The translations under genes were made by a program, and so were the position numbers. 13,257 nt of DNA, taken from IMG/VR virus record IMGVR_UViG_3300045988_112188, positions 1-13,257 of that record. One strand, written 5' to 3'. Positions 182-13,257 of the stretch are shown here, piece after piece. Position 1 is the first letter of the stretch; every line of letters begins with the position of its first letter. The notes below the pieces were generated by a model, which was given only the letters and a program-made list of their open reading frames with translations, ran no database searches and was not told the origin of the DNA. The stretch comes from a virus.

Positions 182-340
182 TCACTTTTCAATTTCTTTT
201 CTAAGTTCTATATCATATCTAAGAAGTTCTGCACAAACACTCACAAGAAGTTTGTCTAACTCTTCATTAGTTTTTACATATGTCATAGCGTCAATAGTTT
301 CTTTCAATTTATCCCTAGCGTTGTAAACTTTCAAGTTCAT
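182..340 (-). CDS. Hypothetical small protein, 52 aa (below the ORF-track length cutoff)
   Basis: Hand translation gives ATG at 340 to TGA at 184-182: MNLKVYNARDKLKETIDAMTYVKTNEELDKLLVSVCAELLRYDIELRKEIEK. A GAGAGG lies 10 nt upstream of the ATG. The ORF overlaps the polymerase 3' end by 26 nt, fills the otherwise empty gap between the polymerase and the terminator, and is predicted helical. I recognise no family. Confidence 0.35.
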   Translation of the reverse strand: MNLKVYNARDKLKETIDAMTYVKTNEELDKLLVSVCAELLRYDIELRKEIEK

Positions 341-2444
341 ATCTTTTTAACCTCTCATTCTCTAAAAATTCATTCCAATTTCCAACAGATGCCAGAATAT
401 ACATATATTCAGCCGATAAACCGATCTCATATGTTGATTCTCGTAGCACAACATTTGAACGAATTTCAATTCTATGTTCTGGTGAATCATCCGTATAGTA
501 AGTTCCATAATCACAGTCATTGTAGACTGATTCCAACTTACCCGTATCACGGAATATGAAGCCAACATTGAAGTTCTCGATTTTTCCCATTTCTCTTGCT
601 CCTGATTTCTTCGGTACTCCCGCAATTGTAATTTTAAATTGTCCATCTTCATCAACATATGCATACTTTTTCGCTCCTAACGTTTTAAATTGTTTATATG
701 TTTCTTCATATTCATACACACCTAAGTAGTGTGTAACGCCTTTCTTATCATCGGCATATCCCTTATTTGAAATACTGAGTTCTTTAAGTTCTTGATTATA
801 TTCTTCTATTTTCTGAATAATTCTTTCATAATCATCACGAACAAGGAACTTGACAGAATCAGTGTCGCAATATACAAAATTATCTCCAACAATGTTTATC
901 ATCTCTTTCAGCTTTAATCTCGCCCAGGCAGTCACCCAGCAACCCCATGCATAAAGAAGAAATGCTTTTTTGTTGTATTTCTCAAGTTTTTCACCTATGT
1001 CCGCGATTTCTTCAAGTTTAAATGCTTGTTCTGGTTCGTCCATGTATATTATATCTGGCTTGACAGGGTTCTGAGCGCACATTCCATACAGTGAGTTGAT
1101 TAATTCCTTACTCCGCATATAGTTTAGTTCTTGCCCCTCGACATTCTTGAGTGATGTTTTCTTGTGAAACAAGTCAATGACCAGATCCCTAAATGCCCGC
1201 GGTAAATACTCGTATTTTGCAATATACACTTGACTAATCTCGACTTCACCAACATATTCACTCTTGACTATCTTCCAATCAATATCATTAAACACATACA
1301 CAGCCTTATCAGCACTCAGTACCCTACCATTATCAACAACTTGACCACTTATCTCAACAGCCTTGTCAAGACTGAGGTATGGTGCACCATAGTATATATC
1401 CCTCTGTTGTAGATGTGTGATAGTGAACACAGCAATGAAACAACAATCTCTGACTTTGCATTTCCGTTCGAGTTCTTCTATGTCAGTTATCATTCTCGGT
1501 GTGAATGCACTCATAGGGAATCTATAATTAAGCATAACATCTGGATAGCTACTTGCCCTATCAAAACTTGCCACGTTTTCAAGTATCTGATTAACATGAT
1601 ACCTATTAGCGTGTGTATCACCACCACGAAATTCGAGTCTTAACAGTCTATACACATCTTCATTGCACATCATGGCGTGAAGCTGATTATAGTTGTATGA
1701 CCTCATTGCATTCTTAGCAAGCCGTCTGACATATCCCGTAGAGGTAAGTGGTAACGAATAGAGTGTGTCATTTTCCATTTTCATTCGTACCCTCATAGCT
1801 TCAAGTAGACCAACAACGTCATTACAGCAATAGTGCAATTCCTCTTGTGTCATTTCAGTCCATGGGAAACGTTTCTTAGAGTAGTCAAAAATAACCCCAC
1901 TGAGCTTCTGATGCGCAACACCCATGTCTTTTGTAAATGCGTCAAGGCTTTTGTTAGTCTGTATATAAGAACAGCGGAACTGTATTCCGTCAATGTCTGC
2001 TCTCACAACCTTTCGTGACTTGAGTGAGAATACCTTGTCTTTCATAAAGGGAAGCCAATGTCTCAAGAACTGAAATTCATAACTCAAGTTATGCACCCAT
2101 ATCATTATGGTGATACCGTCATGGTAGAAGCTGTTTAGCAACTCAATAAACTCATCCCATGTCCTACCAAAACAATACCAGATATTATCTGTTCTCAAGT
2201 CCATTACAGCGAATTGCCATATATACATTATACTCTGTTCGATTTCGTCCAGATATGTAGTCTCAATGTCAAAAGCACACATACAGTTACGAAATAATGT
2301 CTTGTCAACTTTCTTCCGTCTGTTGTAGTTTCTGGCAATCGGGATACCTCTGATAATATCAGAAAGATACTCTCTTTGGACTTCTTTTACGAAATTCTGA
2401 TTCAAAATCTCTATACCTCTCAATAATCTTTTCTGGTTTCTCAT
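315..2444 (-). CDS. Protein-primed family B DNA polymerase (phi29 gp2-type)
   Basis: All signature motifs are present. ExoI is FDIETT. ExoII is NLSYEFQFL. ExoIII is YCCNDVVGL. Motif A is DRASSYPDVM (Dx2SLYP type). Motif B is KELINSLYG. Motif C is YCDTDS. The KxY motif is GAKKYAY. The start is uncertain: ATG 2444 has no good SD and overlaps the upstream ORF by 86 nt. The next in-frame ATG (residue 55, MCAFDIETT) is also conceivable. Confidence 0.95.
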   Translation of the reverse strand: MRNQKRLLRGIEILNQNFVKEVQREYLSDIIRGIPIARNYNRRKKVDKTLFRNCMCAFDIETTYLDEIEQSIMYIWQFAVMDLRTDNIWYCFGRTWDEFIELLNSFYHDGITIMIWVHNLSYEFQFLRHWLPFMKDKVFSLKSRKVVRADIDGIQFRCSYIQTNKSLDAFTKDMGVAHQKLSGVIFDYSKKRFPWTEMTQEELHYCCNDVVGLLEAMRVRMKMENDTLYSLPLTSTGYVRRLAKNAMRSYNYNQLHAMMCNEDVYRLLRLEFRGGDTHANRYHVNQILENVASFDRASSYPDVMLNYRFPMSAFTPRMITDIEELERKCKVRDCCFIAVFTITHLQQRDIYYGAPYLSLDKAVEISGQVVDNGRVLSADKAVYVFNDIDWKIVKSEYVGEVEISQVYIAKYEYLPRAFRDLVIDLFHKKTSLKNVEGQELNYMRSKELINSLYGMCAQNPVKPDIIYMDEPEQAFKLEEIADIGEKLEKYNKKAFLLYAWGCWVTAWARLKLKEMINIVGDNFVYCDTDSVKFLVRDDYERIIQKIEEYNQELKELSISNKGYADDKKGVTHYLGVYEYEETYKQFKTLGAKKYAYVDEDGQFKITIAGVPKKSGAREMGKIENFNVGFIFRDTGKLESVYNDCDYGTYYTDDSPEHRIEIRSNVVLRESTYEIGLSAEYMYILASVGNWNEFLENERLKRYELESLQR

Positions 2445-2865: not shown

Positions 2866-3016
2866 ATTTTCCACACTCCTTATTTAAGAGGGAGAGTATA
2901 ACGTTCTCCCTCAATACAATCATTAACGTGTTACTTCTTGACGTTCCCAACTTTTCAGCTAGTGAATCAAGGTTACTTAATATTCTTTCGTCGAAGTTAA
3001 TGCTCACTGTTTTCAT
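2843..3016 (-). CDS. Ribbon-helix-helix (Arc/CopG/MetJ-type) DNA-binding protein, 57 aa
   Basis: The ATG at 3016 lies 7 nt after AGGAG (the track start at 3043 is a TTG). MKTVSINFDERILSNLDSLAEKLGTSRSNTLMIVLRE fits the beta-strand/helix/helix RHH pattern. It overlaps both neighbours, which suggests translational coupling. Confidence 0.7.
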   Translation of the reverse strand: MKTVSINFDERILSNLDSLAEKLGTSRSNTLMIVLRENVILSLLNKECGKYGKEICK

Positions 3017-3287
3017 GTTCATACTCCTTTGTATCAATAACAAGTTCGCAATCTGATGTTAAATTATCAATAAATGGTTCATCCCATTCATCTTCTCCTT
3101 GTATTTCGTCAAATGGCATTAACATATCATCTTCTATGAGTTCAGCGAAAATTTTACGAAACTGTTCAACAACATTTCCTATATATAAATCCAGATTATT
3201 AAATGACCTGTAAAATGCTTTTACTGTGATACCATCGGTGGCGAACAAAATATTGTTTCCGTTAGTTTCTTTAAAATATATCTTCAT
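2997..3287 (-). CDS. Hypothetical acidic early protein, 96 aa
   Basis: AGAGGAG lies 6 nt before the ATG at 3287. Of the last 49 residues, 19 are D/E and only one is K. I recognise no family. Confidence 0.65.
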   Translation of the reverse strand: MKIYFKETNGNNILFATDGITVKAFYRSFNNLDLYIGNVVEQFRKIFAELIEDDMLMPFDEIQGEDEWDEPFIDNLTSDCELVIDTKEYEHENSEH

Positions 3288-3640: not shown

Positions 3641-3669
3641 ATAATACCACGCTTATTGCTGAATGTCAA
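3641..3669 (-). promoter_or_regulatory. Leftward sigma-A/sigma-70-type promoter
   Basis: On the minus strand there is a -35 TTGACA (3669-3664), a 17-nt spacer, and a -10 TATTAT (3646-3641) preceded by TGg (extended -10). It lies about 45 nt upstream of the first leftward gene. Confidence 0.75.
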
Positions 3670-3690: not shown

Positions 3691-3719
3691 CTGACAAACC
3701 AAAAATATTATGCTATTAT
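3691..3719 (+). promoter_or_regulatory. Rightward sigma-A/sigma-70-type promoter
   Basis: There is a -35 CTGACA (3691-3696), a 17-nt spacer, and a -10 TATTAT (3714-3719) preceded by TGc (extended -10). Its -35 box is 21 bp from the -35 box of the leftward promoter, so the two are back to back. Confidence 0.65.
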
Positions 3720-4090: not shown

Positions 4091-4133
4091 CATTGCGCAC
4101 AGCTTTTCGATCACTATTATAATCACTAATAAC

Positions 4134-4148
4134 GTTCACGTGAAACAT
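4134..4148. promoter_or_regulatory. Palindromic motif copy 1 (GTTCACGTGAAACAT, core TTCACGTGAA)
   Basis: Its reverse complement ATGTTTCACGTGAAC is identical over 15/15 nt to 8010-8024. The 10-bp core is a perfect palindrome. Confidence 0.6.
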
Positions 4149-4170
4149 CACATATATGTTTATCAAGTTA

Positions 4171-4188
4171 ATGTTTCATGTGAAACAT
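4171..4188. promoter_or_regulatory. Palindromic motif copy 2 (ATGTTTCA-TG-TGAAACAT)
   Basis: It has perfect 8-bp inverted arms. It lies 40 bp centre to centre from copy 1 and 13 nt upstream of the AGGAG of the 4214 gene. It shares TTAATGTTTCAyGTGAA..CATG with copy 3. Confidence 0.6.
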
Positions 4189-4213
4189 GAACAAAGAAAA
4201 AAGGAGAAATAAC

Positions 4214-4567
4214 ATGAACATTATTAAAACAAATATTGCAGATGATGATTGGACTATGGATTTATCGTATGATATGTTTGAATCACCTGACCGGCTTCGT
4301 GGCTTAGATCTCAAGGGAGAGCAGGTACACATTGACAAGTATTGTCTCTATGAAGAAGACAACATGAATGGTGATACAGTGAGGGTTCTCACAGTTTCAA
4401 CCACTGAGGGACATGTATTCGCTACTACATCAGCGGCGTTTGTACGCACATTCGACAGAATCATGGAACTTGCGAAAAAATGTGGTGTCACAAATGTTTG
4501 TGTTGAAATTGTAGCAGAACGTAGCAAGAACAACCGTGAATACATTACTGCAAAATATGTCAAGTAA
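4214..4567 (+). CDS. Putative phi29 p5-like single-stranded DNA-binding protein, 117 aa
   Basis: The ATG at 4214 is 7 nt after AGGAG, whereas the track start at 4187 lies inside palindrome copy 2. VLTVSTTEGHVFATTSAAFVRTFDRIMEL...VCVEIVAERSKNNREYITAKY resembles the C-terminal half of phi29 p5 as I recall it (...FAADGSLYSAISKTVAEAASDLIDLV...KVKVVQGTSSKGNVFFSLQL), and the size is similar. The similarity is recalled from memory. Confidence 0.4.
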   Translation: MNIIKTNIADDDWTMDLSYDMFESPDRLRGLDLKGEQVHIDKYCLYEEDNMNGDTVRVLTVSTTEGHVFATTSAAFVRTFDRIMELAKKCGVTNVCVEIVAERSKNNREYITAKYVK

Positions 4568-5621
4568 GAAGAAATCCAACCTGTACACAGCACAGGGATA
4601 CCTAAATATTAGAGGGATAGTTGAAAATGGCTATCCCTTTAATTTTATTTGGGGAGGCAGAGGTACAGGAAAGACATATGGTGGTCTGAAATATGCCTTA
4701 GAAGAACACAAGACCTTTATGTATTCTAGAACAAAACAGACTCAACTTGACAAAATCAAAAACAAAGAACTATCTCCACTTAAACCTCTTAATGATGATC
4801 TAGGTTACAACATACAGCCTTACGCCATTAATAACATTGCGGGATATTATCATACATCAGAAGATGAAGATGGTAAAACAACACCAGTGGGAAAACCTGT
4901 AGGCTATGGATCGGCTATCACCACACTGTCAAACTTACGTGGTTTTTCAGCAGAGGACGTTTCTCTATGGATATGGGACGAATTCATTCCACAGAAAGGT
5001 GATAGAGTTCCTAGAGGAATAGCAGAATCATTCCTGCATGGTTATGAAACCATGAACCGAAACAGGGAGTTGAAAGGACTACCGCCGCTACAGGTGCTAT
5101 GCTTCTCGAACTCAGACAATGTAGGCTGTGAACTGTTCGCCAGTCTAGGACTTATCCGCAAAGTCGCGGATATGTCACGGAAAAGACAGGAAACAGCTTT
5201 CCTCAAGTCAAGAGGCATCGCTTTATATAACTTATGTAATAGTCCTATCTCACAGGCGAAAAAAGAAACAGCACTCTATAAGATGGTAGGCGAACACAGC
5301 GGCTTTTCTCAAATGGCTTTAGGAAATGAATTCTATGATACTGACTATTCGGATGTAAGATCGCAAAACCTATCAGAATATCTTCCGTTAGTATTTTTCG
5401 AAGAAATCGCAATCTATGAACACAAGTCCTCAGATATGCTCTATGTGTGCAAGCATAAACAGGGTACGCCAATTCGAACATTTACAGGAATAAACGAAAA
5501 GAACATCAAAGCCTTTAAACGGTACTATTCATGGATATGGAATGTAAATTATCTCGAAGACAAAATCTTTTTCGAGGACATAGAATCTAAATTTCTACTT
5601 GACAGCTATTTTCATATGTAG
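4557..5621 (+). CDS. DNA packaging (encapsidation) ATPase, phi29 gp16-type
   Basis: Walker A is GGRGTGKTYG. Walker B is LWIWDEFI. MNRNRE and CFSNSDNV match the phi29 gp16 pattern (GARGIGKSY, IVFDEFI, RNRER, LSNA). The start is either the ATG at 4557 (overlapping the upstream stop) or the GTG at 4536, and neither has a strong SD. Confidence 0.9.
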   Translation: MSSKKKSNLYTAQGYLNIRGIVENGYPFNFIWGGRGTGKTYGGLKYALEEHKTFMYSRTKQTQLDKIKNKELSPLKPLNDDLGYNIQPYAINNIAGYYHTSEDEDGKTTPVGKPVGYGSAITTLSNLRGFSAEDVSLWIWDEFIPQKGDRVPRGIAESFLHGYETMNRNRELKGLPPLQVLCFSNSDNVGCELFASLGLIRKVADMSRKRQETAFLKSRGIALYNLCNSPISQAKKETALYKMVGEHSGFSQMALGNEFYDTDYSDVRSQNLSEYLPLVFFEEIAIYEHKSSDMLYVCKHKQGTPIRTFTGINEKNIKAFKRYYSWIWNVNYLEDKIFFEDIESKFLLDSYFHM

Positions 5622-5627
5622 TACAAT
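5599..5627 (+). promoter_or_regulatory. Consensus-like promoter embedded in the 3' end of the ATPase gene
   Basis: There is a -35 TTGACA (5599-5604), an exactly 17-nt spacer, and a -10 TACAAT (5622-5627). The predicted start at about 5633-5635 coincides with the first base pairs of the structured element. Confidence 0.6.
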
Positions 5628-5632
5628 GTTTG

Positions 5633-5723
5633 TATAGGGAAAACAAAAGTCCGTGGCACAAGGACATACAGCGGAACTGTAGTGCGAGGATTCGTCCAAT
5701 CCATGATACGGACTTTCCCTATA
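5633..5723 (+). ncRNA. Candidate packaging RNA (pRNA-like) or structured leader; 91-nt three-way-junction RNA
   Basis: The closing helix P1 pairs TATAGGG 5633-5639 with CCCTATA 5717-5723, and AAAGTCCGT 5646-5654 with ACGGACTTT 5708-5716. P2 pairs GCAC 5656-5659 with GTGC 5682-5685, and TACAG 5667-5671 with CTGTA 5677-5681, and carries a bulge AAGGACA 5660-5666. P3 pairs GGAT 5688-5691 with ATCC 5699-5702 and has the loop TCGTCCA. The bulge GGAC is complementary to the loop GUCC. The region is non-coding and lies between the ATPase gene and the next gene. Confidence 0.45.
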
Positions 5724-5758
5724 TTTAACAGTTCCAAAAAAGAAAGCGGGTGAATAAA

Positions 5759-5956: not shown

Positions 5957-6279
5957 ACATATCAGCAGAAATCATTGCAAAAACATCTGAAAGCGTAAAG
6001 GGATATATGCTTCATCCGCACACGGATGTATACGGCGAATTAAAAGTTGATACCAAAAACCTTGACTTGATGTTACGCGATGCACCGACTTATGACAGCA
6101 ATGTGATCGCTTCTATGCCAAAAGGCAGTACATTTTTTGGATATGGATTTACCGATTCCACCCTTAAATGGGTACTCGGACAGTATACCATGCCGAACGG
6201 AAAAATGATTGCAGGATTCGCCCACATTGACTATCTAATCAGAATCAGAAAGGAGAATAAAAGACATGACAATGGATGA
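5953..6279 (+). CDS. Stand-alone bacterial SH3 (SH3b)-like domain protein, 108 aa
   Basis: The TTG start at 5953 is 6 nt after GAGGGTGA and overlaps the upstream stop (TTGA). LMLRDAPTYDSNVIASMPKGSTFFGYGF...KWVLGQYTMPNGKMIAGFAHIDYL fits the SH3_3 cell-wall-binding pattern (LxxRxxPxxxSxVIxxxxKGxxF...W...G..G.v...YL). No catalytic domain is attached. Confidence 0.55.
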   Translation: MNISAEIIAKTSESVKGYMLHPHTDVYGELKVDTKNLDLMLRDAPTYDSNVIASMPKGSTFFGYGFTDSTLKWVLGQYTMPNGKMIAGFAHIDYLIRIRKENKRHDNG

Positions 6280-6766
6280 TATTATCGCACTCGCGGGTGC
6301 GGGATTTACAAAAAATGACATTATTTCATTAATTAATACCACACCAGCACCAGCACCAGCACCAGCACCAGCACCAGCACCAGCACCAGCACCAGCACCA
6401 GCACCAGCACCAGCACCACAGTTAGGAATTCCACCAGTACCAGTAGGAGTTATAGCACAGCAGGTAGTCACACCACCGGAGTTATTACAGGATCAGCTTA
6501 CAAGTCCGTCAACAGCAGGACAGGCTCAGAGTCAGTTAGTTGATTATGCTTTTCAGCAGGGGAATTATGCAGGGAGTCCGACACAGAATGTAGTAGGGCG
6601 GCAGTTTCCGAATAATGACCAGTTAACGAATTCTATCAATGCACTGACCAGAGCGGTGCAGGCTAATGGGATCACACAGAATCTTGCAGGAGTTAATCAT
6701 GTTCCGACTGTCGATGAAATGACAGCGGCTATTATTAATCCACCGGAAATTATGCAGAGGGGGTAA
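6266..6766 (+). CDS. Putative head scaffolding protein with a (Pro-Ala)12 linker
   Basis: AAGGAG lies 9 nt before the ATG. The gene sits immediately upstream of the major capsid gene, as phi29 gene 7 does. The protein has a small helical N-terminal module, a (PA)12P linker, and a Q/N/P-rich low-complexity C-terminal part. The function is assigned by synteny only. Confidence 0.5.
   Translation: MTMDDIIALAGAGFTKNDIISLINTTPAPAPAPAPAPAPAPAPAPAPAPAPQLGIPPVPVGVIAQQVVTPPELLQDQLTSPSTAGQAQSQLVDYAFQQGNYAGSPTQNVVGRQFPNNDQLTNSINALTRAVQANGITQNLAGVNHVPTVDEMTAAIINPPEIMQRG
6344..6418. repeat. Perfect hexanucleotide tandem repeat (CCAGCA) x 12.5
   Basis: I counted unit by unit from 6344 to 6418 and found no interruption. 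The repeat is in frame and encodes (PA)12P. Confidence 0.95.
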
Positions 6767-6769
6767 AGT

Positions 6770-7963
6770 ATGGCTAGTTCGACTTTTATATCGGTTGATA
6801 AACCATCAATCGGAAATTTCAATGCAGTTGCTACGTTAAATGCTATTATTTCACAAGCTACTGGCAAAACTGCTGTGAGTGCTGTTAATAATAATTTTGT
6901 GTCAGTTGCTACCACAGCAATAGGAATTGCACCAGACGCATTACTTAATGCTATTTCACAGGTTATTTCAAGGACTATTTTTTCCATACGTCCATACAAT
7001 AGAAAGTTTGCAGGACTTTTTGTGGATAGCATGAAATGGGGCAACCACGTTCGTAAAATTAACATCGGAGACAAAGACTGGGAAGCAAATGTTTCTTACG
7101 ACTTAACAGATGGACAGAGCATAGATGCTGACATTGTAAGCAAACCAGATATTTTACAGACCAATTTTTATGGACAGTGTGTATACAGTAAGCACTATAC
7201 CATTTTCCGTGACCAGTTGAACATTGCTTTGCAGAATGAAGAGGAGTTTGAGAGATTCTATACCATGCTTGTTCAGAATACCATGGATATGATTGAACAG
7301 TGCCATGAAAACACAGCAAGGGCAACTATCGCAAACTTAATCGGCGGCAAGGTTAAAGGTGATACCACAAATGTTATTCACCTTGTCACAGAATATAATG
7401 ATGTGACAGGTCTTGAACTTGACAGTGATACTGTGAAAAAACCAGAAAATTTTGTTCCATTTTACAAATGGGCATTTTCTAGAATCAAAACAATCTCCGG
7501 TTTTATGACGGAAAGAAGTTTGCAGTATCACATCAATGTTACTGGTCACAATATTATGAGACATACACCTGTGCAGAATCAAAGACTGTATCTCTACACG
7601 CCAGAAATGAACAACGTGGAAAGTTCTGTATTTTCAAGTGTGTTCAACGAACAGTACTTGAAGATGATGGACTATGAGGGAGTTAATTTTTGGCAATCAA
7701 TTAAAACTCCTATGGGTATTAATGTACAGGCAAGATATATGTTACCTAATGGTTCTATAACACCAGACAGTACAGGTACAGCAACTTCAAACATTTTCGG
7801 TATTCTCATGGATGAAGAAGCGGCAGGAATCACTACCTACGGTGCAAGAACTGCTGTCACACCATATAATGCAAGAGGTGAGTACACTAATGTTTGGTGG
7901 CACTTCAACGATCGGTATTGGAATGATTTTACTGAGAACGCTGTTGTGTTTTTACTTGACTAA
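6770..7963 (+). CDS. Major capsid protein (phi29 gp8-type, HK97 fold), 397 aa
   Basis: GAGGGGG lies before the ATG. The C-terminus RGEYTNVWWHFNDRYWNDFTENAVVFL parallels phi29 gp8 [27 protein letters not shown]. The N-terminal NAISQVISRTIFSIRPYNRKF parallels [25 protein letters not shown]. The gene lies between the scaffold candidate and a strong terminator. It lacks the C-terminal Ig-like extension of phi29 gp8. Confidence 0.85.
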   Translation: MASSTFISVDKPSIGNFNAVATLNAIISQATGKTAVSAVNNNFVSVATTAIGIAPDALLNAISQVISRTIFSIRPYNRKFAGLFVDSMKWGNHVRKINIGDKDWEANVSYDLTDGQSIDADIVSKPDILQTNFYGQCVYSKHYTIFRDQLNIALQNEEEFERFYTMLVQNTMDMIEQCHENTARATIANLIGGKVKGDTTNVIHLVTEYNDVTGLELDSDTVKKPENFVPFYKWAFSRIKTISGFMTERSLQYHINVTGHNIMRHTPVQNQRLYLYTPEMNNVESSVFSSVFNEQYLKMMDYEGVNFWQSIKTPMGINVQARYMLPNGSITPDSTGTATSNIFGILMDEEAAGITTYGARTAVTPYNARGEYTNVWWHFNDRYWNDFTENAVVFLLD

Positions 7964-7979: not shown

Positions 7980-8004
7980 GGGCGGGTGTTATGCCCGCTC
8001 TTTT
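7980..8004 (+). terminator. Intrinsic terminator or attenuator after the capsid gene
   Basis: GGGCGGG-tgttatg-CCCGCTC forms a 7-bp GC-rich stem with one G.U pair, followed by TTTT. It begins 17 nt after the capsid stop codon. Confidence 0.7.
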
Positions 8005-8009
8005 AATTA

Positions 8010-8026
8010 ATGTTTCACGTGAACAT
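8010..8026. promoter_or_regulatory. Palindromic motif copy 3 (ATGTTTCACGTGAACAT)
   Basis: It starts 6 nt after the terminator T-tract and ends 2 nt before the GAGGTG SD of the tail-knob gene. It is identical over 15 nt to the reverse complement of copy 1. Confidence 0.6.
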
Positions 8027-8039
8027 GCGAGGTGATAAT

Positions 8040-9443
8040 ATGAGTTTTAATGTTGAGTTTTTCCGGGTGGCAAAAAGAAAAAATTCTACTTTTGTTCCTG
8101 AGACTAAAGACGTTGTAAGAACAGAGATGTGTACCATCAAAGAGGGTACAGGGGTGTTAAATCCTGTTATTACTATCGCAAATTCTTCTGCATCTTTCAA
8201 TCCGTCAAGATGGAACTATTGTCATATTAGTACATTTTCACGATATTACTGGATTAGTGACTGGAAAAATGAGGATAATTTGTGGACGGCTCAATTAAAA
8301 GTTGATGTTCTTGCGTCTTATAGAGAAACCATTAAAGACTATAACTACTATGTGGTAAGGTCTTCTACTTCCTTTGACGGCGGTATTGCTGACGCTCTTT
8401 ATCCGAAAAAGCCACAGGTCAACAGGCAAACTGTGACTGGCAATCCTCTATGGCAGATTGAACAGGGGTTTGATATTGCAGGTTCTTATGTAGTAGGTAT
8501 TGTGAACAAACAAGGTCTTTGCAACTACTATGCCATGAATCCTGCAAACTTTAAAAAACTCGCCAATTCAATATTCAGCAATATTAAGTGGATGGTAGGA
8601 GATGGAATCTCGGGAGTATCTGACAATCTGATACAGATAGCTGTTAATCCCGCTCAGTACATTACGTCAGTGACATGGTTTCCATTCACACTTGGCGGTA
8701 CACAAATGTCTGGCATTTCTATCGGTTGGTGGGATGTTACAGGATTAACATTATACAAGTTGGATGATGACTTGTGGAAAACAAAAGAAACTTCTGTCAC
8801 TCCTACATCACATCCACAGTTAGAACGTGGCAATTATCTTAATTGTCAGCCATACAGATATATCAGAGTATATATTCCACCTTTCGGTTGTCTCACTGTT
8901 GACAGTGGCAAAATAAGAGATGGTGAAAGTATTAAGATAAGTGCAGACGTAGACCCACGTACAGGTCATGCATTATGTCGCATATCAGTTGATAATACTG
9001 GTGGTGGAAATGAGTTACTCGGAATCATGTACTCCAATATTGGCGTTTCTATTTCAACCAGTGATATCAAAACCAATTACTCAAACGTAGCATCAGGTGT
9101 AAGCAACGCATTAGGTTCATTATTTAAGCTTGATGTTGGCGGCTTCGCAAAAGGAGTTGTGAACAGTGCTATGGCTGTAGGTTCGGCAGAAGTTTCCACA
9201 AAAGGCGGTCAGGGGTCAACTATTGGATTGACTTCTTATGTGTATTGCTATATTGACTGTATGCTATTAGTTGATGAAGACAGAGCGGATAATGGTAGAC
9301 CTTACTGTAAAAACAGTAAATTCTCAACACTTGGGGACGGTTATTATGAGGTTGAAAATGGTAGTACTCCCATATCAGGAGCATATCAGAGTGAAATTGA
9401 CGAGGTTAAAAACTTCTTGGAAAGCGGGGTATATTATGCGTAG
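8040..9443 (+). CDS. Tail knob / distal tail tube protein (phi29 gp9-type), 467 aa
   Basis: The ATG at 8040 lies 5 nt after GAGGTG, whereas the track start at 8010 is inside the palindrome. SRYYWISDWKNEDNLWTAQLKVDVLASY parallels phi29 gp9 [31 protein letters not shown]. The Gly/Ala/Ser-rich segment NVASGVSNALGSLFKLDVGGFAKGVVNSAMAVGSAEVSTKGGQGS (9084-9218) parallels the gp9 hydrophobic loop. The C-terminal SEIDEVKNFLESGVYY parallels NDLQEIRTIFDNGITLW. Confidence 0.7.
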   Translation: MSFNVEFFRVAKRKNSTFVPETKDVVRTEMCTIKEGTGVLNPVITIANSSASFNPSRWNYCHISTFSRYYWISDWKNEDNLWTAQLKVDVLASYRETIKDYNYYVVRSSTSFDGGIADALYPKKPQVNRQTVTGNPLWQIEQGFDIAGSYVVGIVNKQGLCNYYAMNPANFKKLANSIFSNIKWMVGDGISGVSDNLIQIAVNPAQYITSVTWFPFTLGGTQMSGISIGWWDVTGLTLYKLDDDLWKTKETSVTPTSHPQLERGNYLNCQPYRYIRVYIPPFGCLTVDSGKIRDGESIKISADVDPRTGHALCRISVDNTGGGNELLGIMYSNIGVSISTSDIKTNYSNVASGVSNALGSLFKLDVGGFAKGVVNSAMAVGSAEVSTKGGQGSTIGLTSYVYCYIDCMLLVDEDRADNGRPYCKNSKFSTLGDGYYEVENGSTPISGAYQSEIDEVKNFLESGVYYA

Positions 9444-13087: not shown

Positions 13088-13114
13088 AGGGTGACTTCGG
13101 TTGCCCTCTCTTTT
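13088..13114 (+). terminator. Intrinsic terminator of the rightward operon, inside the right ITR
   Basis: The plus-sense RNA reads AGGGUGAC-UUCG-GUUGCCCU, an 8-bp stem with two G.U pairs, followed by CUCUUUUC. It starts 6 nt after the last stop codon. It is a weaker copy of the left-end terminator, with a shorter stem and an interrupted U-tract. Confidence 0.6.
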
Positions 13115-13257
13115 CGCGAGTGAGTTAGTTGAAACTAACTTTGTTCCCGTCTAAGTTAAATGCTACTAACTCATGGGCGAAGCGACCGGAGGGAGCGAAG
13201 CCATTTCGAACATATGTTTGTGTTTCGTGTGCGTTCGCCGCGGACAGACTGGGTGGT
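13088..13257. repeat. Right inverted terminal repeat (ITR), 170 bp
   Basis: It is the reverse complement of 1-170 with 5 mismatches, and the window ends exactly at the repeat end. Confidence 0.95.

Follow-up and report, generated by a model that had tools for sequence, protein, structure and literature searches.

A short palindrome that recurs in the 13,257-bp window analysed here—the whole of IMG/VR virus record IMGVR_UViG_3300045988_112188—is very likely a chromosomal-type parS, the site at which the partition protein ParB (Spo0J) of the bacterial host would nucleate on DNA. By its sequence the window is a phi29-like, protein-primed podophage of the human gut, and the phage probably borrows the DNA-segregation machinery of its host, as phi29 does. 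What the sequences themselves provide is the identity of the undamaged palindrome with parS, its conservation in close relatives, its recurrence across the wider phage family, and the lack of a match to a ParB domain among the open reading frames (ORFs) examined; binding by ParB and the outcome for segregation we infer from the phi29 precedent.

The window contains three copies of the palindrome, two of them closely spaced (copy 1, 4134-4148; copy 2, 4171-4188) and the third (copy 3, 8010-8026) almost 4 kb away. The first-pass annotation, made from the letters of the window alone, had listed these three positions and found no others, and both statements hold well above chance: across the whole window, the core TTCAYGTGAA gives five strand-matches against 0.14 expected and lies exclusively at the three sites, and an 18-mer search allowing up to three mismatches returns two matches against 0.03 expected. 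Copies 1 and 3 are, as was also claimed, identical over 15 nt in opposite orientation, the same 15-mer occurring at 4134-4148 (+) and 8010-8024 (-), with two matches against 0.00 expected in 200 shuffles. What had escaped notice is that the undamaged form of the motif is parS. Copy 2 is the sole near-consensus site in the window, its 16-mer (4172-4187) matching 15 of the 16 positions of the parS consensus (C8>T, a variant also present in the relatives L151 and L210). Copies 1 and 3 fit the consensus except for a 1-nt deletion in one arm, and each keeps one intact half-site; a T has been lost from copy 1, and an A from the right arm of copy 3. The deletion in copy 1 is shared with the closest relatives (L221, L224-L226, and L228) and is therefore a real variant and not a sequencing error.

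Two further features of this DNA touch the copies. An inverted similarity of 36 nt between 4113-4148 and 8010-8045 was considered and treated as chance, as identity outside the common 15-mer is about 57 %. Upstream of copy 1, after the stop codon of the gene for a 102-aa protein, a block of the form CTTTTCGAT(C/T)..CTATT(A/C)TAATCACTAA occupies 4093-4130 and is kept across sub-clades, in L007-L012; it resembles neither a good sigma-A promoter nor a terminator.

The consensus of the motif in the close clade, TGTTTCACGTGAAACA, is identical at 16 of 16 positions to the parS consensus tGTTNCACGTGAAACa, and this 16-mer is published as the chromosomal parS consensus (PMC7022226 Table 1; PMC7053999; PMC4488948). 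It is the parS of Hyphomonas, with TGTTNCACGTGAAACA serving in B. subtilis and further variants in Caulobacter and Burkholderia (PMC7022226 Table 1), and the consensus in S. pneumoniae is tGTTTCACGtGAAACa (PMC4488948). A parS oligonucleotide, GGATGTTTCACGTGAAACATCC, carries A..T flanks equal to those of the phage motif (PMC7053999). Among the matches listed, all papers containing the 16-mer concern ParB/parS or origin regions. The site of the paralogous protein Noc, termed NBS (TATTTCCCGGGAAATA), differs from parS at four positions (PMC7053999); the window copies, unlike NBS, carry the parS bases G2, A7, T10, and C15. No match to a ParB domain was found among the main ORFs of the window that were examined, nor among ten ORFs of the distant relative L207 searched against Pfam; hence, any ParB acting at these sites would have to be that of the host.

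Conservation was assessed in a close clade of 22 genomes, comprising the window, 11 IMG/VR relatives (84-98 % identity in the 467-aa protein encoded next to copy 3), and 10 human-gut genomes that encode an identical 57-aa ribbon-helix-helix (RHH) protein. The sequence A[T/C]GTTTCACGTGAAACAT is present in all 11 IMG/VR relatives, at 1-4 copies per genome, and also in the 10 gut genomes, and across these 21 relatives the palindrome, (A)TGTTTCACGTGAAACA(T), hardly varies. A perfect 16-mer is present at least once in 20 of the 22 genomes—the window being one of only two without—and every one of the 22 has at least one site that departs from it by a single mismatch at most. The intergenic DNA that flanks the motif diverges freely, and purifying selection on the motif is visible in this comparison.

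The first-pass annotation had named equivalent positions in relatives as a check, and there the motif is indeed found, at orthologous positions in the close clade that fall into four site classes. Site A lies upstream of the gene for a single-stranded DNA-binding protein (SSB) and is often double, the other copy being 25-50 bp further upstream; site B sits in the gap that separates a conserved small RNA from the gene for a 65-aa protein (L002-L006 only); site C lies between the terminator of the capsid gene and a tail gene; and site D, a perfect parS on the - strand in L004-L006, lies just upstream of the Shine-Dalgarno (SD) sequence of the RHH gene. The orthologue of copy 1 is an intact CGTTTCACGTGAAACA in L008-L012. 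That of copy 2 is a perfect TGTTTCACGTGAAACA in L002-L004, L006, L221-L226, and L228-L230; in L005 and L007-L012 it has one mismatch, and in L227 a 1-nt deletion. The orthologue of copy 3 is perfect in L001-L006, L008-L012, and L221-L228, with one mismatch in L007, L229, and L230. Beside site D, a 96-aa acidic ORF (2997-3287, -) overlaps the start of the RHH gene in the window and its ten closest relatives and is missing from L002-L007; in L004-L006 a perfect parS fills the matching spacer (3174-3284 in L004). Here a small indel polymorphism exchanges a gene for a site.

Recurrence beyond the clade was measured in a sample drawn independently of the motif, consisting of 80 relatives collected from GTDB contigs by homology to the family-B DNA polymerase (PolB) and totalling 837 kb. 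These contain 38 parS-like sites (no more than two mismatches, the threshold used throughout for this term) in 15 loci, compared with a mean of 0.31 for 300 control palindromes of equal half-site composition, an enrichment of about 100-fold. NBS-like sites are not enriched, with 1 found against the 38 parS-like ones. The 87 sites located in the family comprise 63 that are intergenic, 23 inside ORFs, and 1 at a gene edge, on the basis of ORFs from our own rough caller. A few of the host ORFs, short and antisense, are probably spurious; the others include cases in which perfect copies lie inside the PolB gene itself, in L020, L043, L163, and L132. Intergenic sites are nearer to the next start in 15 cases and nearer to the previous stop in 9, a difference that is not significant, and several abut a stop codon. 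In several distant relatives parS-like sites are found not between genes but within or beside the terminal repeats, the origins of protein-primed replication. L210 has copies at 131 and 11843, in both terminal regions, and copies are placed near contig ends in L204, L178, and L132. The richest locus, L207 (JAZUKR010000061.1, 11,840 bp), has 15 parS-like sites, three of them with the variant TGTTTCACGTAAAACA.

A scan of IMG/VR for the 14-mer core returned at least 119 loci, ranging from 30 to 69 % GC and often holding several copies, often with A..T flanks; at least 14 of these loci encode a phi29-type PolB. Among cultured phages, parS-like sites are present in those of Firmicutes (four in phi29, four in Goe6, two in Clostridium phage HM2, and one each in Amedibacillus phages AD70P2 and AD70P3) and number zero in Salmonella phage astrithr, Acinetobacter phage Phanie, and Vibrio phage K58 g2. 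This distribution, with sites in cultured Firmicutes phages and none in the Gram-negative relatives examined, is consistent with the parS reading in terms of host. All four phi29 sites are of the form TGTTTCACGTGGAACA, as are three of those in Goe6, the fourth Goe6 site having two mismatches.

The motif had been described as standing always just upstream of a ribosome-binding site. This is true of copy 2, ending 25 nt before its start codon, of copy 3, ending 13 nt before its own, and of every site class of the close clade; it fails for copy 1, which is 65 nt upstream of its start, and for the wider family. As the positions in the wider family show no bias towards starts, proximity to ribosome-binding sites is a trait of the close clade and not of the element, and it is best explained by where a palindrome of 16-18 bp can fit in a genome with about 90 % of its length coding. 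A related point, that the ATG starts at 4187 and 8010 in the ORF track are spurious, was correct: both belong to or overlap the motif and share a frame with the starts at 4214 and 8040, each of which has an SD before it, so that the motif sets an annotation trap which can now be corrected.

The first-pass annotation also suggested that the motif acts as an RNA hairpin, given its proximity to the SD, or belongs to a middle or late promoter that depends on an activator; the promoter was considered here as a phage-specific one with the motif at its core. Taken together these two suggestions have the smallest chance of any explanation considered here. The palindrome does fold, at -5.9 kcal/mol for the consensus and -8.2 in the context of copy 2, and in the clade it is close to the SD; this hairpin is weak, however, and the sequence is invariant, self-complementary loop included, with no covariation, which argues against a primary role in translation. 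A promoter would make sense after the terminator that precedes copy 3, yet the gap of 2-13 nt between motif and SD is too short to hold a -10 element and a transcription start. Upstream of the motif, the hexamer varies (ATTAAT, TATAAT, TGGAAT, ACTAAT, TGTTAC), no -10 or -35 is conserved at a fixed distance upstream, and no ORF resembling an RNA polymerase or sigma factor was found in the window. Nor was a gene for a p4-like activator indicated, as none of the window's ORFs matched a family of transcription regulators. Both suggestions also sit poorly with copies that occur in both gene orientations, inside ORFs, behind stop codons, and in terminal repeats.

Other candidates were tried and set aside. 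No sigma-70 promoter coincides with the motif on the coding strand, the sole match that touches it being antisense (TTCACG-17-TATAAT, 4144-4116) and not conserved. A search of the whole window against Rfam (E <= 1) returned nothing relevant. The sites of ECF (extracytoplasmic function) sigma factors (TGAAAC-N16-CGT), cre/CcpA, Rex, LexA, and PadR (ATGT-N8-ACAT), compared by eye, misfit in spacing or in half-site orientation.

The proposed operator role, for a dimeric regulator, survives in one of its two forms. A host factor fits, since the consensus is that of ParB/Spo0J parS; the phage's own RHH protein was the other candidate, and nothing points to it. On that account, the 57-aa RHH protein would regulate the middle and late genes, and the likeness to parS would be a coincidence, for which we allow only a very small chance. 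Palindromes do suit dimeric repressors, the RHH gene is conserved in 22 of 22 close-clade genomes, and the copy just upstream of its SD in L004-L006 could suggest autoregulation. A coincidence would, however, have to extend to an exact 16/16 fit, and the motif overlaps no recognisable promoter and is constant while the RHH protein drops to 82 % identity. The 16-mer is also found in phi29-like phages with 33-55 % PolB identity that have no detectable RHH homologue (although the 57-aa query is too short for tBLASTn to inform beyond the close clade), and the motif occurs in phi29 and in unrelated contigs of 30-69 % GC.

A role for parS in a phage has a precedent. Meijer et al. 2005 reportedly described parS sites in phi29 and a Spo0J-dependent entrapment of the phage in spores. 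PMC2731898 gives five parS sites for phi29 and states that Spo0J is involved in moving the genome into the prespore, and segregation into the prespore through parS and Spo0J is restated elsewhere (bioRxiv 10.1101/2024.05.22.595388). By analogy, host ParB dimers would bind the phage parS through their helix-turn-helix domains after injection, close as clamps dependent on cytidine triphosphate, and slide over the 13-kb genome. Through ParA/Soj, SMC, or both, ParB would then couple the phage DNA to the chromosome-segregation apparatus of the host, and the unintegrated genome would be delivered to the forespore, as in the entrapment of phi29, or to daughter cells in a carrier state, and not be lost. 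Which of these outcomes applies depends on the host, and entrapment in spores is only one of the plausible uses of parS here. Persistence could be in spores of gut Clostridia or in carrier cells, a matter that bears on the stability of lytic phages in the gut.

Bound ParB may also act on transcription. A secondary dampening of the genes downstream is possible, though a minority possibility. In a stronger form of the idea, ParB at parS would be first of all a transcriptional gate or silencer that restrains the lytic genes until it is titrated by replication, an explanation we regard as distinctly unlikely. The layout of the sites lends it some weight: they separate the first gene of each early operon from the modules for replication, structure, or tail, and all four site classes of the clade are at boundaries between expression modules, each with a copy 2-13 nt from the next SD. 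These classes follow, respectively, the gene for the 102-aa protein (the first rightward gene), the first leftward gene (L004-L006), the conserved small RNA (L002-L006), and the terminator of the capsid gene. In S. pneumoniae, ParB bound near comCDE represses comCDE (PMC4488948); the same study finds, however, that ParB does not act as a global regulator and that a parS beside a strong promoter is without effect (PMC4488948). In the wider family, moreover, a gate does not fit sites that lie within coding sequence, behind stop codons, or in terminal repeats and that show no preference for starts (15 versus 9). A combination of the two roles is improbable, if a shade less so: host ParB at the module-boundary parS would both silence and segregate the genome, giving a strictly virulent gut phage a dormant, vertically inherited state, in a spore or a carrier cell, that requires neither integrase nor repressor. 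If true, such a ParB-dependent switch would be common to some members of a very large family of tiny podophages of the gut.

The multiplicity of sites allows another use of ParB, in which the replicating phage, at hundreds of copies, acts like a sponge and draws ParB off the host origin to the phage's benefit, disturbing ParA/Soj-DnaA control, chromosome segregation, or entry into sporulation. We consider this very unlikely. Several sites per small genome would suit it, as would the 15 in 11.8 kb in L207, and B. subtilis parB mutants have defects in sporulation and in replication control (PMC7022226 Table 1). The common complement of one or two sites per genome would suit a cis-acting tag as well, however, and the data on phi29, as given in PMC2731898, indicate segregation of the phage genome itself.

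Several observations weigh against host-type parS and a segregation role. The window has no perfect parS, and the 1-nt deletions in copies 1 and 3 should weaken binding of ParB. Of the 80 distant relatives, 65 have no parS, so that the site is not essential to the lifestyle. A placement of sites simply anywhere between genes does not fully explain why every site class in the clade has a copy 2-13 nt from an SD. Boxes for Spo0A (TGTCGAA) are not enriched, with 1 in the window (at 4451, within the SSB gene) where 1.8 are expected; the conserved early promoter region has none, and L008-L012 have none. The host, too, is a difficulty: Amedibacillus, the host of the nearest cultured relatives, is not known as a spore-former, and the labels of the metagenome-assembled bins that hold the relatives' GTDB contigs are mutually inconsistent (Clostridia, Bacteroidales, Methanobrevibacter) and, being unreliable, were not used for host assignment.

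The parS sites are set in a genome of familiar plan (Table 1). The inverted terminal repeats, together with the phi29-like gene set, mark the window as a complete linear genome, which has 38 % GC and strong SD sites; these two features, the bin labels in so far as most are Clostridia, and the nearest cultured relatives, on Amedibacillus and Clostridium, point to a host among the Firmicutes. The closest cultured phages by protein are Amedibacillus AD70P2/P3 (Guelinviridae) and Clostridium HM2, and a megablast search of GenBank phages gave nucleotide similarity only to an unannotated human-faecal contig. The phage seems to be common and of wide geographic range: 153 blocks of a public assembly collection index the exact 57-aa RHH protein, and the contigs shown are all metagenome assemblies from many studies, mostly with sample names in the style of the human gut. 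The two early promoters are strongly conserved in relatives and are the sole strong promoters upstream of site A. The assignment of the SSB gene is tentative in score (PHROG SSB, E = 0.0015; Pfam Phi29_Phage_SSB, E = 0.01, which is below the curated cut-off), and the 467-aa protein had no match in family searches, its tail role following from synteny with phi29 gene 9.

Table 1. Positions of the palindrome copies and of other features in the 13,257-bp window.
Feature	Position	Strand	Remarks
Copy 1 (distal, site A)	4134-4148		GTTCACGTGAAACAT; decayed parS CGTT-CACGTGAAACA(T), from 4133
Copy 2 (proximal, site A)	4171-4188		ATGTTTCATGTGAAACAT; best parS of this genome
Copy 3 (site C)	8010-8026		ATGTTTCACGTGAACAT; ATGTTTCACGTGA-ACAT; between capsid-gene terminator and SD of 467-aa tail gene
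Inverted terminal repeats	1-170 and 13088-13257		170 nt; 97 % complementary
Protein-primed family-B DNA polymerase (PolB)	315-2444	-	Pfam DNA_pol_B_2 match
RHH protein, 57 aa	2843-3016	-	Weak matches to CopG, NikR, BrnA, VapB
Early promoter, sigma-A type, divergent	3641-3669	-	TTGACA-17-TATTAT; serves leftward replication arm
Early promoter, sigma-A type, divergent	3691-3719	+	CTGACA-17-TATTAT; serves rightward arm
p5-like SSB gene	4214-4567	+	SD GGAG at 4204-4207; first gene 3' of copies 1 and 2
Major capsid protein	6770-7963		Phi29_MCP family match
Intrinsic terminator	7980-8004	+	GGGCGGG..CCCGC stem and T-tract; between capsid gene and copy 3
467-aa gene in tail-protein position	8040-9443	+	SD GAGGTG at 8030-8035; first gene 3' of copy 3
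Further phi29-like genes			gp16-type packaging ATPase, gp10-type connector, tail lysozyme, GDSL hydrolase

Three side observations concern other parts of this genome. Each terminal repeat holds AAACATATGTTCG at 39-51, one mismatch from the Gram-positive LexA (Cheo) box, GAAC-N4-GTTC, and the terminal sequence varies between sub-clades. In the region 5599-5740 (+) a near-consensus promoter, TTGACA-17-TACAAT (5599-5627), leads into about 105 nt of noncoding sequence that is highly conserved in all relatives, sits between the packaging ATPase gene and the next gene, and has a homologue in the distant L020 and L043. RNAalifold gives it a multi-helix fold of 24 pairs, 7 with compensatory changes, and no Rfam family matched it; it probably represents this phage group's packaging RNA (pRNA). 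Finally, a hexanucleotide tandem repeat, (CCAGCA)n, at 6341-6386 within gene 6266-6766 (+) encodes, by hand translation, a Pro-Ala repeat near the N terminus of a 166-aa protein, whose length among relatives is 155-187 aa.

Compared with chromosomal parS, the phage element has the same 16-bp sequence (tGTTNCACGTGAAACa), and its A..T flanks match those of the native Caulobacter 22-mer; it differs in lying on a viral genome and not near oriC, within intergenic spacers in the clade, and in its density of 1-4 sites per 13 kb (15 in one relative) as opposed to some 4-10 per chromosome. Phages P1 (parS/ParAB) and N15 (sopC/SopAB) are likewise maintained or segregated through a ParB-type centromere, as is proposed here. 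They encode their own ParA and ParB, with a centromere sequence of their own that is not the chromosomal one, whereas no par gene was detected in the present phage and its site is the host's own consensus. Repression by ParB-family proteins at short palindromes near genes, as in the KorB-OB system of RK2 and the silencing by ParB of P1 and F, recalls the placement of the present sites at module boundaries; in those systems the ParB homologues are encoded by the plasmids and have sites and partner proteins of their own. The stoperators and start-associated sequences of mycobacteriophages (clusters A and K) are also short conserved motifs repeated in gaps beside gene starts. These are asymmetric, bound by the phage's own repressor or of unknown function, and lineage-specific, unlike the present motif, which is a pan-bacterial host site.

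The nearest parallel is phi29. Both are virulent, protein-primed podophages of the phi29 type with several host-type parS and no detectable ParB gene. The present phage is from the human gut, its genome measures 13 kb and not 19 kb, and PolB identity between the two is 22 %. The present clade uses the fully palindromic TGTTTCACGTGAAACA, and whereas three of the four near-consensus sites of phi29 fall in annotated coding sequences, those of the present phage are all intergenic and beside SD sequences; the enrichment of Spo0A boxes that belongs to the phi29 strategy is also lacking. That a phage can carry host-type parS is thus already known, and what is new is the setting and the scale. On a virulent phage, the device had been elucidated for phi29 and its close Bacillus relatives alone; it is now met, in perfect consensus form, in a globally distributed human-gut phage, and about one in five members of a large family of protein-primed phages of 12-14 kb have it as well. 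This suggests that hijacked host partition machinery is a common route to persistence for non-temperate gut phages, and parS on a small phage genome without par genes of its own offers a searchable marker for it.

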